This document shows, one piece after another, positions 1,214 through 62,505 of a stretch of DNA of 64,000 nucleotides. Under the pieces are notes generated by a model. That model saw only the letters and a list, made by a program, of their open reading frames with translations, was not told the DNA's origin and made no database searches. Origin of the DNA: Methanothermococcus sp. SCGC AD-155-E23 (lineage in GTDB: Archaea > AGJL01 > Methanococci > Methanococcales > Methanococcaceae). The stretch covers positions 27,335 to 91,334 of the forward strand of contig JAHEQA010000036.1 in assembly GCA_019561615.1 (NCBI GenBank). Reading direction: 5' to 3'. The translations under genes were made by a program, and so were the position numbers. Each line of letters starts with the position of its first letter. Within the stretch, counting starts at the first letter, position 1.

Positions 1214-2104
1214 TCAGGGTTTATAGGGGAACTTGGCAACAATGTCCATAAATTCCTCCTCACTGAGGTACTCCCTATTACCCACCCTAAGTACCTTCTT
1301 CTCAATAACCCTTCCAAAGGGGATAACTGGACATCTCTTCTCCACACATATCTCTAAGATATCCCTTAAATTCTCCTCCCTCGTACTTATAATGTAGGTG
1401 CCCAGGTATCTGGTAGAGCGGGGATAGGGTAGGGCAGTTATCTCCATACCTACCTTGGCCTTCACCATCATCTCAAGTACGTTACACAACCACCCTCCCC
1501 TGGAGGCATCCTTACAGGCGTTAACCTCAATTCCCCTCTCCACTATACTTAAAAAGGTGTCGTATTTATTTTTAGCCCTCTGAATCCTCTCCCCAATGTC
1601 ACCCTCTACAGGATGACCAAGCATAAGTACAATATCTCCAACCTGGGCACCTCCATCAGTTATTACCCTATCTCCTATCAACTCCCCAAACACCACCACA
1701 GATATACAGGGAGATAACCCCTCTTCACTCTGGGTGTTCCCTCCAACTATGGGGATGTTTAAACCTAGGGACTGTCTCCTTAATCCCTCTACAGCCATCT
1801 TTAACTCTTCCTCACTCTGGGCCTGGATTGCATTCAGGGCGTAGAGGGGTCTCGCCCCCATGGCCACAACATCACAGGAGGTATGTATAAGGGCAGTTTT
1901 TGAACCTAGCTTTAGAGGATATGGGCCCTCCATGTTTATTACATTCCTCCCTATTACTACGCTGTCATCCCCTGCCCTAATACCCCTTAAAAGATCCTTT
2001 ACCTTGAGATCCATGTCCCACAGCCTCTTCCTTGGGTAGTGTGTCTCCATCATGTGTTTTATAGCATGTTTTATCTCGTACTCCAAACGTTCCATATTAT
2101 CCAT
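1214..2104 (-). CDS. AIR synthase (PurM-like)-related protein
   Basis: GDDSVV, DVVAMGARP, IVGGNT and KDASRGG motifs. Lacks the HypE C-terminal PRIC. Confidence 0.8.
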   Translation of the reverse strand: MDNMERLEYEIKHAIKHMMETHYPRKRLWDMDLKVKDLLRGIRAGDDSVVIGRNVINMEGPYPLKLGSKTALIHTSCDVVAMGARPLYALNAIQAQSEEELKMAVEGLRRQSLGLNIPIVGGNTQSEEGLSPCISVVVFGELIGDRVITDGGAQVGDIVLMLGHPVEGDIGERIQRAKNKYDTFLSIVERGIEVNACKDASRGGWLCNVLEMMVKAKVGMEITALPYPRSTRYLGTYIISTREENLRDILEICVEKRCPVIPFGRVIEKKVLRVGNREYLSEEEFMDIVAKFPYKP

Positions 2105-5796: not shown

Positions 5797-6605
5797 CTAT
5801 GGAATCCAAGACACTTATAAGACGTATACTGAAGGACATCTATAGAAATTTAGACGAGTACTCCAAGGATCTTATAAGGGCCTGTAATTACAAGGTAAAG
5901 TTCCAAGGCCTATTTTTAGTGGAGAGAGATACTGGAAAGAGGAGAAATATAAGGTCCCTGGAGGAGTGTGAATCTCTACCATCCTTTAAGGTGGAGGATA
6001 GGGAGTACACCCTCAAAGGTGTCAATCTAGAGGATGTCCACAGGGACACCTTGGAGATACTTCTATCTTCAAAGACCTCTAAGGGTTACTCCTTCAAGGT
6101 GGACAAGGACTACAGGGTCGTTGGACCTAAAAGGGATATCACCTATGAGCATAGGGAGAGGATACTAAGGTGGAATGAACTCTCCGAGGAGGAGTTGGAT
6201 AAAAAACTTGACAGGTTCTACGATATTGTTGAGAGAGTATGTGAGGACCTAAGGAAGGTAGAGGGTATGGAGAAGTACAACTTCATGGTATACACAGATA
6301 TATTCATGGATCTGGAGGTTGTAGAAAACATCGTTGAGAGAGAGGAAGATATAACTATCATCTGGATCCATCCCCTCTACCTCTTCTCCAGTGAGAGGGT
6401 CTTAAAGGGTGTTGTAGCCTACGAGTTGTCCACCTACAACAGAAGGATTCTGGAGGAGTTCTACAGGGATATCCTAGAGTACTGTAGGGAGTACAAGAAA
6501 CTCTTTGGCAAGAACTTGAAGGTACTCAAGGAGATAAAGGACATTGCCATAAAGAGAAAGGATAAAGAGGTTATGGATATTATTAGGGAGATAGAGGAGA
6601 TCTAA
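5793..6605 (+). CDS. Conserved hypothetical protein
   Basis: Long ORF with host-like codon usage, coupled to neighbours by an ATGA overlap. Confidence 0.75.
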   Translation: MTMESKTLIRRILKDIYRNLDEYSKDLIRACNYKVKFQGLFLVERDTGKRRNIRSLEECESLPSFKVEDREYTLKGVNLEDVHRDTLEILLSSKTSKGYSFKVDKDYRVVGPKRDITYEHRERILRWNELSEEELDKKLDRFYDIVERVCEDLRKVEGMEKYNFMVYTDIFMDLEVVENIVEREEDITIIWIHPLYLFSSERVLKGVVAYELSTYNRRILEEFYRDILEYCREYKKLFGKNLKVLKEIKDIAIKRKDKEVMDIIREIEEI

Positions 6606-49503: not shown

Positions 49504-49618
49504 GCCGAGGTGGCTTAGTCTGGTTATAGCGCTCGGCTCATACGGATTATTCCCAAGGTCTCTCCTTGGGTCCGGGGAAACCGAGAGGTCGAGGGTTCAA
49601 ATCCCTCCCTCGGCACCA
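49504..49618 (+). tRNA. Elongator tRNA-Met (CAT) with a 37-nt intron at position 37/38 (49543-49579)
   Basis: GCCGAGG...CTCGG-CT-CAT-A-[intron with CCCAAGG/CCTTGGG hairpin]-A-CCGAG...TTCAAAT...CCTCGGC-ACCA. Confidence 0.92.
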
Positions 49619-60033: not shown

Positions 60034-61206
60034 ATGAAGAAGATAGAATATGAGAAACTTCTCATGATCCCAGGACCTACCATGGTATCAAGTGAGGTAT
60101 TGAATACAATGGCCTATCCTGTTATAGGTCATAGAACTGAGGAGTTCAGGATACTGTTGGAGGATACTATAGAGAAGATGAAAAAGGTATTTATTACCCA
60201 GGGGGATGTTTACATCATCACAGGATCTGGAACTGCAGCTATGGATATGGCTATTGCCAACACTGTAGAGAAGGGGGATAAGGTACTTACTATATGTAAC
60301 GGTAACTTTGGAGAGAGGTTCTCCAAGATTGTGGAGGTGTACAAGGGAGATGTTGTTAAATTGGAGTATCCATGGGGAAGGGGTGCAAGACCTGAGGATG
60401 TAAAGAGAATCTTGGAGGAGAATCCAGATATCAAGGCTGTCACCGTAGTTCACAACGAGACATCCACAGGTGTAAGGAATCCAATTAAGGAGATTGGAGA
60501 GATAGTTAAGGACTACAACGCCCTCTATATAGTTGATACCATCTCCTCCCTAGGTGGTGACTACGTAGATGTGGATAGATTCCATATAGACATATGTGTT
60601 ACAGGCTCTCAGAAGTGTCTAGGGGCACCTCCAGGGGTCTCAGCCATATCCATAAGTGAGAAGGCCTGGGATGTTATAAACTCCAGGGAGAGTAAGTCCT
60701 TCTACCTGGATATAAAGGCCTATAGAGATAGGTTTGAGAGTAAAAGGGAGTCACCCTATACACCTGCAGTACCCCTGATCTATGCATTAAATAAGGCACT
60801 GGATAGGGTACTTGAGGAGGGTTTGGAAAATAGGGTTAAGAGACATGAGAGGATGGCAAGGGCAACAGTTGCAGGGTTGGAGGCCATGGGTATAGAGTTA
60901 TTTGCAGAGGAGTGGGCAAGATCTATAACTGTAACCTCTGCCAAGTATCCAGAGGGTATAGAGGATAAGAAGTTTAGAGGGATCCTATCTAACAAGTACA
61001 AGGTGGTCATTGCAGGAGGACAGGGACAGGTCAGCGGTAAGATATTCAGGATAGGACATATGGGAGAGGTAAGGGAGATCCATATACTGGGAACCTTGGC
61101 CGCCATAGAGATGGCATTCAAGGAGTTAGGCTATGAAGCCAGTGGAGGGGTAGATGCTGCCAAGGATATACTGGGTACGGGCTGTACTATAGATAGCAAC
61201 ATTTAG
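60034..61206 (+). CDS. Class V PLP aminotransferase
   Basis: LMIPGPT, GSGTAAM, VHNETSTG, VDTISS, GSQKCL, FRIGHMG. Confidence 0.93.
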   Translation: MKKIEYEKLLMIPGPTMVSSEVLNTMAYPVIGHRTEEFRILLEDTIEKMKKVFITQGDVYIITGSGTAAMDMAIANTVEKGDKVLTICNGNFGERFSKIVEVYKGDVVKLEYPWGRGARPEDVKRILEENPDIKAVTVVHNETSTGVRNPIKEIGEIVKDYNALYIVDTISSLGGDYVDVDRFHIDICVTGSQKCLGAPPGVSAISISEKAWDVINSRESKSFYLDIKAYRDRFESKRESPYTPAVPLIYALNKALDRVLEEGLENRVKRHERMARATVAGLEAMGIELFAEEWARSITVTSAKYPEGIEDKKFRGILSNKYKVVIAGGQGQVSGKIFRIGHMGEVREIHILGTLAAIEMAFKELGYEASGGVDAAKDILGTGCTIDSNI

Positions 61207-61294
61207 ATATTATTCTTCTTGAGTATGGGGAGACGTTGAGAGGTTAAGTAGGTTGTTGGACATGGGGAGTTTGGTTACCTTGTCTTAAATTTTT

Positions 61295-61935
61295 GACGAA
61301 ATTCGTACCCCCTAAATTTTTTCACTATAATACAAAATCAACCCCCTCTGTTTTCTTATAATAAAAAGTTGAACCCCCGGTGCGAAATCCGCACCCCCTC
61401 AAAGATTTTCCCCGGGTTTTTTCTCACCCACCTTCCCAAAATCCCAATTCCATATATATACCTGCGTCCCAGGGTATATATACCCCGGGACGCATTCCGC
61501 ACCCCCTCTCCCATTTTCTTATAGTGAATACCTGAACCCCGGTGCGGAATGCGTCACAAAATCCCTCTTAAGGTGCGGATTTCGTCCACCTACGAAGGTC
61601 AACCTCGAGATTTTCCCGGGACTCTTCCTTGACAACTGCCGCATTTCGCACCCCCCTCCAAGACCCCACAATTTTTTCTTATAATATAAACCTCATTTCT
61701 TATAGTGAAACCTCCTTTGAGGGCTAGTAACCCCTGGGTAATACCCCTAACTGTGCCGAAGTTCGGATCAGAGATTCTAATACCCCCTCTTAGGGTTTCT
61801 GATACCCCGGTGCGAAATTCGTCCCAATTCGACATCTCCCTATACTGGTTTTTCCAGAAAACCACGACGAATTTCGCACCTAAAACAGTACAACCCCCTG
61901 ACTAAAACCCAAAATAAGGACGAGATCTGTACCCC
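61295..61935. repeat. Non-coding cluster of 15-bp pseudo-palindromic motifs in both orientations, with TTATAGTGAA motifs and a 32-bp palindrome
   Basis: GACGNAWTYCGCACC-like copies at 61295, 61379, 61489, 61541, 61572, 61638, 61809, 61866 and 61919. Perfect 15-bp inverted pairs at 61489/61541 and 61809/61866. Confidence 0.85.
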
Positions 61936-61973
61936 ATAAAAAATAGTGACTTAACCTTCAGTGGGATATACGC

Positions 61974-62130
61974 CATACTTCCCCTATGCCCGCTATATGG
62001 GTACTTAAGCCCTAATGGTTACAGGTATTCCCCTGAAGATGTGGGGAGTTCCTCTTCCCTTGAAAGCCCTCAGATAAGAGGGAAGGTTATCCACTACCGA
62101 TGTTTCAAATGTGATAGATAATCAGAACGG
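61974..62130 (+). mobile_element. Internally deleted tnpB 3' remnant (IS200/IS605 or IS607 type)
   Basis: Broken-frame peptides HTS / LCPLYGYLSPNGYR / LKMWGVPLPLESPQ resemble, from recall, the Thermococcales/Methanococcales TnpB C-terminus TSSLCPICG.KLSPNG.R...LKMWGV..PPESP. Ends CAGAACGG. Confidence 0.65.
62033..62130 (+). ncRNA. HgcC/omega-RNA-like structured RNA
   Basis: Three stems: 62043-48/62054-59, 62067-71/62078-82 and 62085-91/62117-23. GATGTGGGGAG...GAAAGCCC...GGGAAGG...CAGAACGG matches my recollection of the HgcC family. Confidence 0.55.
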
Positions 62131-62133
62131 TAA

Positions 62134-62505
62134 TCACTCCTCCTCAAACTCTACAGTTATATTTTTTATGTTGAACTCCTTACCCCCATCTATTTTTAGT
62201 GATAGGTTGCCACATTTTGGACAACTTATAATAAGATCATCTACAGAGTCTAGCTCCCCCCTGTAACCACAGTTGTTACATGTGATATAGGGTTTTATAA
62301 TCTCCACCTCTATCTCTGCCCCCTCACATATAGTGGATTTGGAGATCACCTCGAAGGCGAACTTCAACTGCTCTACATTTATAAATGTTAACTCCCCAAT
62401 TTCCAGCTTTATCTTACTTACTCTTTTCACATTTTTGAGATTCTGGTTTTTTACAGTATCTAATATGGTGTTTAACATGAAGGTTGCATAGGATAACTCG
62501 TGCAT
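62134..62505 (-). CDS. hypA: Hydrogenase nickel metallochaperone HypA
   Basis: MHELS, IGELT..N.EQL.FAF, CNNC..CPKC, GG.E. Confidence 0.95.
   Translation of the reverse strand: MHELSYATFMLNTILDTVKNQNLKNVKRVSKIKLEIGELTFINVEQLKFAFEVISKSTICEGAEIEVEIIKPYITCNNCGYRGELDSVDDLIISCPKCGNLSLKIDGGKEFNIKNITVEFEEE

Follow-up and report, generated by a model that had tools for sequence, protein, structure and literature searches.

The window analysed here is a stretch of 64,000 nucleotides from the genome of Methanothermococcus sp. SCGC AD-155-E23 (G000 in the following; 1.04 Mb in 51 contigs, 86% complete). Towards its right-hand side, an aminotransferase-like ORF ending at position 61206 is separated from hypA by an intergenic spacer of 927 nt. 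hypA (62134..62505, minus strand; PF01155, E 3.8e-30) is the host gene beside the element described below and not a part of it. The final ~165 nt of the spacer are taken up by this element, which lies on the plus strand at ~61965-62130 and originated from a tnpB gene, namely from its 3' end. Its left border is a zone at 61965..61982 (plus strand), where homology with the closest copy, G011:C104, begins approximately in an alignment of 30 copies with their flanks. The right end is formed by the single-stranded tail AGAACGG at 62124..62130 (plus strand), beyond which every copy diverges, and the element was inserted 3 nt beyond the hypA stop codon (62134-62136). No ORF of at least 30 aa is present on the plus strand within 61965-62110, and no promoter was identified for the window copy. 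In another part of the window, positions 49504-49615 (plus strand) gave a tRNA match of 112 nt with a model of 71 positions; presumably this is an archaeal tRNA with an intron.

A DNA search of G000 returned five further matches to the element with 88-94% identity on contigs C27, C29, C4 (two matches) and C46. In the aligned copies a common core extends up to ...GATAACCAGAACGG(A), and directly after it the copies have nothing in common. To share the end of a core and then to diverge at once is the mark of a mobile-element end. A different flank follows ...CAGAACGG(A) in every copy, and in the window CAGAACGG occupies 62123-62130, directly after the stems described below. A left end beginning GGGCTGTTT is shared by both intact elements and by 20 out of 30 gene-less copies. 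The same motif search over the 30 copies gave no recognisable left end for the window copy. Thus, it cannot strictly be called a 'PATE with both ends'. Where the left end meets the retained 3' part, the junction varies among the copies, and some of them are without the first stem, suggesting that the family either arose by several deletions or kept shrinking. On the 5' side of the left end, which was searched for a TAM, A or T appeared by eye to be preferred before GGG in ~20 copies.

Membership of the window copy in this family was assessed with covariance models. Since the training set of the first model, R1, included the window copy, a second model, R2, was built as an independent test from 11 copies of other genomes only. 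Against the 64-kb window R2 gave a single match at 61978-62136 (plus strand), which spans the full model length and scores 93.1 bits (E 2.7e-24). On a panel of 32 loci, R2 matched all three loci with a cognate tnpB (L075, 123.6 bits; L023, 72.1 bits; L069, 46.6 bits), only one of 19 loci with other tnpB genes, weakly (16.6 bits), and none of ten HgcC loci. With R1 the window copy scored 138.7 bits as compared to 140 bits for the best copy, and it is among the better-kept copies of G000. Scanning the whole window with Rfam at the gathering threshold, and positions 61150-62250 at E up to 10, yielded only tRNAs and chance-level matches such as CRISPR-DR49 (20 bits against a gathering score of 41).

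Across the order, R1 found 62 matches in 14 of 40 genomes, six of them in G000. Three of these 62 abut a tnpB gene and the remaining 59 are not next to one. Six genomes in which no TnpB model matched at E up to 1e-5 together contain 35 of the 62 copies, namely G000 (leaving aside a fragment on C4), G001, G004, G005, G009 and G011. The congeners among these genomes, which are 96-99% complete, carry seven (G004), one (G005), eight (G009) and ten (G011) copies. G017, G024, G033 and G039 carry three to eight copies each, and their best matches to the cognate TnpB have an identity of 30-37%. G017 contains five near-identical copies that coexist only with TnpBs 30-33% identical to the cognate one. 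In one genome without a detected cognate nuclease the family seems to have amplified recently. So many copies without a cognate TnpB are odd for an RNA that is useful only together with its own TnpB.

The origin of the element from tnpB can be read from its former coding sequence. In a single frame the window copy translates into ..LCPLYGYLSPNGYRYSPEDVGSSSSLESPQIRGKVIHYRCFKCDR*, in which a degenerate CP..G is followed by SPNG, then by PEDVGSS...KVIHYRCFKC and a stop, a remnant of the TnpB C-terminus. The intact TnpB of G015 reads ..CPICGGRMSPNGHRVLKCECCGCIADRDVVGSLNIMIRGFKAIKPKDVGSSVPPES..KVIRYACFNCFKISG*. About 32 codons, which contain the second zinc-ribbon Cys pair and the RuvC-III DRD motif, are absent from the window copy and from most gene-less copies. 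In three relatives the same DNA is located at the 3' end of tnpB; the gene is full-length in G015 (404 aa) and in G032 (408 aa), and split in G031. Both R1 and R2 match the 3' ends of these three genes on the strand of the gene, and the intact ORFs of G015 and G032 read through the scaffold almost to the right end. At L075, which carries the intact G015 element, the R2 match spans this additional segment and measures 264 nt as compared to 159 nt in the window. In a genome-wide tblastn search the peptide of the window copy did not reach significance (E 0.42), and the homology therefore rests on the DNA and covariance-model matches.

The intact elements of G015 and G032 encode tnpB only. Among the copies, TnpB models still recognise only the one on C4 (PF07282 with 40 bits and E 4.7e-10; NF040570 with 53.8 bits over positions 313-373, TGA stops included), and its translation contains a typical TnpB stretch ending CPICGG. 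Directly upstream of this piece, 35 aa match the C-terminus of the IS607-type serine recombinase TnpA of G017 (E 0.003). We take the GG at both element ends to fit IS607 as well. Y1 transposases were absent from the five genomes searched and a recombinase remnant is present in the C4 relic, and the parent looks like an element of the IS1341/IS607 type. On C4 of G000, the recombinase C-terminus, a TnpB stretch of ~40 aa and the scaffold follow one another at ~6075-6480 (locus L004 ~1476-1880, minus strand), and this relic of the parent element is broken by stops and a frame change. At L075 (G015:C119), positions 1270-1300, the upstream host ORF (415-430 aa) runs into the left end of the intact element and takes its final codons and its stop from it. 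Thus, the insertion remodelled the C-terminus of that gene.

The structure of the scaffold was examined by comparison. Single-sequence folding of the window copy was not better than that of shuffled sequences (z -0.06 for the plus and +0.97 for the minus strand), and any claim for a structure must therefore come from the comparison of copies. As RNAalifold returned only 16 pairs on the alignment of 21 copies, a structure drawn by hand was tested instead. It comprises five helices with 36 pairs, and the MAFFT alignment on which it was drawn contains 21 gene-less copies of full length from nine genomes. In the window all of its parts are on the plus strand. Helix P1 (61983-61991 with 62017-62025) retains seven of nine pairs in the window copy and encloses the hairpin P1b (61999-62001 with 62010-62012). 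This P1/P1b region (61983..62025) consists of what were once the CP.CG and SPNG codons of tnpB. It is followed by the deletion junction (62026..62036), at which, according to the comparison with the intact TnpBs of G015 and G032, ~32 codons between SPNG and PEDVG are gone. Helix P2 (62043..62059; 62043-62048 with 62054-62059) pairs GGGGAG with CTTCCC, helix P3 (62067..62082; 62067-62071 with 62078-62082) pairs CCCTC with GAGGG, and helix P4 forms the terminal 13-bp stem (62085-62097 with 62111-62123) with 11 of 13 pairs and two C-A mismatches. The base of P4 is GGTTATC/GATAATC (62085-62091 with 62117-62123). Overall, the window copy keeps 30 of the 36 pairs in the register of the alignment.

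Standard pairs occupy 91.0% of the 697 cells of this alignment, as compared to 34-50% after the 3' partners had been slid along by 1-3 columns. Changes on both sides of a pair occur in 11 of the 36 pairs (46 cells), and the covariation score amounts to 0.215 versus 0.04-0.09 for the slid partners. None of 500 shuffles reached the observed paired percentage or the observed score. The copies are related and the structure was derived from one of them, which makes these pairing figures somewhat generous. The changes on both sides are found in four pairs of P1, two pairs of P3 (97% of cells paired) and four pairs of P4. By eye, P1 switches between GUCUCC/GGAGAC and GUGCCC/GGGCAC and P3 between CCACCC/GGGUGG and CCAGCC/GGCUGG; P4 switches too, and the intact G032 copy has a fully re-paired P4. 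These clear compensatory switches in P1, P3 and P4 are hard to explain otherwise. The G-U pairs make the structure specific for one strand, the sense strand of tnpB, and the scaffold probably served as an RNA. In addition, CCGTTC in the loop of P2 is complementary to GAACGG before the right end. All six pairs can form in 11 of the 21 copies and also in both intact elements. In the window copy four of six are left, and the match is broken likewise in the two other copies from G000 in the alignment. We found no covariation for this complementarity, and it may represent a pseudoknot.

These results bear on the first-pass annotation of the locus, which had been made from the letters and their open reading frames. 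It had noticed three stems, which are indeed present and turn out to be the inner parts of the family-wide helices P2, P3 and P4 supported by covariation in the 21 copies. The deletion that it had proposed for the segment with the second Cys pair and the DRD motif was confirmed by comparison with the intact G015 TnpB, as was its description of the flank after 62130 as antisense to the 3' end of hypA. It had placed the TnpB peptides in three broken frames, whereas all peptides of the window copy are in one frame and two frames are seen only in the C4 copy. The flank in question (62131..62150, plus strand) covers the hypA stop codon and last codons in antisense orientation and is in the position of a guide, and by analogy with the TnpB literature it may once have acted as one. 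The layout of the element as a whole is that of a TnpB guide (omega) RNA.

A partner protein was sought in G000 and its relatives. No intact tnpB was found in the 86% complete assembly of G000. PF01385 had no match in this genome, PF07282 and NF040570 matched only the fragment on C4 (~60 codons), and tblastn with the two cognate TnpBs also returned only C4 (E 1.5e-14). The congeners G004, G005, G009 and G011 (96-99% complete) gave no TnpB match at all. The Y1 transposase model PF01797 had no match in any of five genomes, and the serine recombinase model PF00239 matched only in G017 among these five. The assembly of G000 is incomplete and split into 51 contigs, and repeated tnpB genes often remain unassembled; thus, a partner could be missing from it.

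Related copies have lost parts of the scaffold. The copy at G011:C88 (L038 ~1495-1560) is 98% identical to the window copy over 47 nt and keeps only the last third of the scaffold. At G011:C35, which is the ortholog of the C27 copy by both flanks, the 3' strand of P4 and the right end are lost. The losses in the window, C88 and C35 copies fit neutral decay. The C88 copy adjoins the same kind of repeat array as the window copy and has a different downstream gene. The last codons of a 198-aa ORF beside it run antisense through the terminal stem of the element.

The repeat array next to the window copy is a discrete dispersed repeat of 363 nt at 61351-61713 (61290-61940 with looser limits). Further copies with 96-98% identity are present on C4, C17, C29, C45 and C47, and partial ones at the ends of C9, C13 and C23. 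The repeat is rich in a 15-bp palindrome that precedes a C run and has 45 matches in the genome as compared to one for the reversed control. A role of the array as a replication origin was considered and rejected: the palindrome clusters at nine contigs and the 363-nt unit recurs with 96-98% identity; the GC-skew profile was uninformative for this reading. The repeat rather resembles a gene-less element that has recently been active. In metagenome contigs the depth climbs sharply over it. The link between scaffold and array that the earlier annotation had thought possible did not hold, as the array is an unrelated repeat and only one of the six element copies of G000 adjoins a repeat of this type. 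The TnpB-derived element and the 363-nt repeat are separate elements sharing an intergenic dumping ground.

An empty site was searched for by placing the DNA contigs of four runs on the locus. In one X11 metagenome contig (depth 4.1; likeness threshold 85; shorter side of 30 letters) position 61177 is followed by 11 other letters and then by 62138. The contig connects the ends of the aminotransferase-like gene and hypA; thus, a related population may lack the whole 960-nt spacer. We regard this contig as a weak hint at an empty site.

Taken together, we consider the stretch to be a gene-less guide-RNA element of the PATE/MITE-like kind and most likely an inert relic, a reading to which we assign a probability of roughly 0.7. 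Two deletions would have taken out nearly the whole nuclease gene of a tnpB insertion sequence of the IS1341/IS607 type. The part retained would be the one that overlaps the end of tnpB in an intact element and encodes its guide (omega) RNA, a putative scaffold of a 5' stem with an inner hairpin, three more stems and a short tail ending exactly at the right end. In an intact system transcription would continue past this end, the last 16-20 nt of the RNA coming from the flank, and TnpB would use this RNA to cut the empty site, which would restore the element. The window copy would have landed 3 nt past the hypA stop codon. Such a cycle is in print for TnpB, whose RNA spans the right end of the transposon and directs the cutting of the vacated site, and the same logic is described for elements of the IS607 family (bioRxiv 10.1101/2023.11.20.567912). 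No TnpB or matching transposase was detected in this genome and its closest relatives, two stems contain mismatches, the match between loop and tail is lost and sister copies carry deletions; the window copy is therefore most likely an immobile and unused fossil, probably inactive at present.

It is unlikely, in our view, that the window copy is a working orphan guide RNA, which would be transcribed, loaded in trans by a TnpB encoded elsewhere and used to cut the empty site beside hypA. The nuclease would then have to come from the unassembled part of the genome, a plasmid or a virus, and the cleavage would help the element to persist. The earlier annotation had favoured such a guide usable by a TnpB in trans, and the searches lend it no support, as no partner was found beyond the C4 fragment and none in the four congeners. 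The scaffold with its 30 of 36 pairs is largely intact, right end and flank are correctly laid out and the assembly is only 86% complete. Moreover, the trans use of gene-less omega RNA elements has been described: PATE-like elements without a protein gene 'often encode omega RNAs' for which TnpB has to be supplied in trans (PMC10055086), and standalone omega RNAs can act in trans with compatible effectors (PMC10691335). However, tnpB is missing not only from the incomplete assembly, its one fragment aside, but also from four congeners that are 96-99% complete and carry the same elements. Furthermore, none of the three aligned copies of G000, the window copy included, has kept the complementarity of the candidate pseudoknot, the left end of the window copy is missing and sister copies are decaying. 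The persistence of 35 of the 62 family copies in six genomes without a TnpB match, together with a structure supported by covariation, would suit a small RNA that was domesticated and works without TnpB, and a transcript reading through the right end would pair with the end of the hypA mRNA. It might act as an antisense regulator of the hypA 3' end or as a structured RNA that is bound by a different protein and retained for its benefit to the host. An archaeal precedent comes from Halobacterium, where a PATE-derived and a tnpB-overlapping RNA improved growth when overexpressed (PMC4615843). Nevertheless, we regard domestication as decidedly improbable. The covariation may date from a time with TnpB, neither the loci nor the flanks of the copies are related to one another, large parts have disappeared from orthologous or sister copies, and in the one metagenome contig of low depth the flanking genes are joined with the entire intergenic block left out. 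We are similarly sceptical of the broader idea of a scaffold with a life of its own, trimmed to its helices and recruited by hosts as a flank-specific antisense RNA or as a guide for an unrelated protein, for which one could point to a family that is more common without TnpB than with it.

Membership in the Rfam family HgcC, finally, has hardly any likelihood left. The first-pass annotation had described the locus as a collapsed tnpB element that keeps an omega-RNA/HgcC-like scaffold, of which the guide-RNA-type scaffold at the right end stands and the assignment to HgcC has to be given up. HgcC is common in the same order, with 10 of 41 related genomes over the cut-off, and it has been linked to the right-end-like tetraloops of IS1341-type elements; the passages of PMC4615843 on HgcC mention the tetraloop in common and state no more. 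As the element, HgcC is a GC-rich, multi-copy, structured intergenic element. However, its model RF00062 (50-bit threshold) had no match in the window at the gathering threshold, none within 61150-62250 at E up to 10 and none in G000 at E up to 1. There was no covariance-model match in the opposite direction either, R2 finding none of the ten HgcC loci, and in G017 HgcC matches and element copies are in different places. A covariance-model or TnpB match, by which the annotation had proposed to judge the element, was obtained with R2, not with the HgcC model, and by tblastn only on C4. Of 26 HgcC matches over the cut-off, 21 are not next to tnpB, and the other five lie on the 5' side of tnpB at a distance of 30-350 nt and on the opposite strand, not at the 3' end. 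Rather than being a 3'-end guide RNA, HgcC may mark the ends of tnpB elements from another family. HgcC loci were noted at L044, L048, L051, L063, L064 and L067 (relatives G015, G017, G026, G037 and G039), and in G029 strong and weak HgcC matches form tandem pairs ~200 nt apart.

Read as a gene-less relic of a tnpB element, the window locus is an ordinary one, neither HgcC nor tied to the adjacent repeat array. The family to which it belongs adds a well-delimited guide-RNA family, supported by covariation and without a match in our Rfam scans, from archaea of hydrothermal vents, with the intact form in two genomes and many gene-less derivatives in others. Its gene-less form is a natural 'minimal scaffold', in which an in-frame deletion has brought the first stem ~100 nt closer to the other three. 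This natural deletion may be helpful when guides for the cognate TnpB are to be shortened. The persistence of the family where no cognate nuclease was found raises a small question about the mobility and survival of such elements.

A structural counterpart among characterised guide RNAs is the omega RNA of ISDra2 TnpB (Nakagawa et al. 2023, PMC10097598). It has ~116-150 nt and four stems, overlaps the 3' end of tnpB and carries the guide directly after the right end; the likeness is one of layout. In the ISDra2 RNA a pseudoknot is formed between an upstream segment and the nucleotides that immediately precede the guide (PMC10097598), whereas the corresponding complementarity here is without covariation and broken in the window copy. 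As mobilised guide-RNA loci without an effector or transposase, the elements resemble the standalone omega RNAs of the OMEGA systems (Altae-Tran et al. 2023, PMC10691335). In Halobacterium salinarum, the sotRNAs and the PATE-derived RNA VNG_R0052 (Gomes-Filho et al. 2015, PMC4615843) are likewise archaeal and come from the 3' ends of IS1341-type tnpB genes, VNG_R0052 being similar also as an RNA from fused left and right ends. They belong to a different archaeal lineage and sequence family. Compatible effectors are described for the standalone omega RNAs and transcription for the H. salinarum RNAs, whereas no effector was found here and the RNA of the element is a predicted one. The PATE-like elements of the IS200/IS605 type in Geobacillus stearothermophilus (Meers et al., preprint PMC10055086) share with it the lack of an ORF, the derivation from tnpB, a guide-RNA scaffold at the right end, the occurrence in multiple copies with different flanks and the presumed need for TnpB in trans. 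Unlike these, the parent here looks like an IS1341/IS607-type element, no TnpB was found in the genome or in four congeners, and the window copy is without a recognisable left end. In every feature visible in the sequence our element nevertheless fits this kind, and it would appear to represent a new family of a kind already described.
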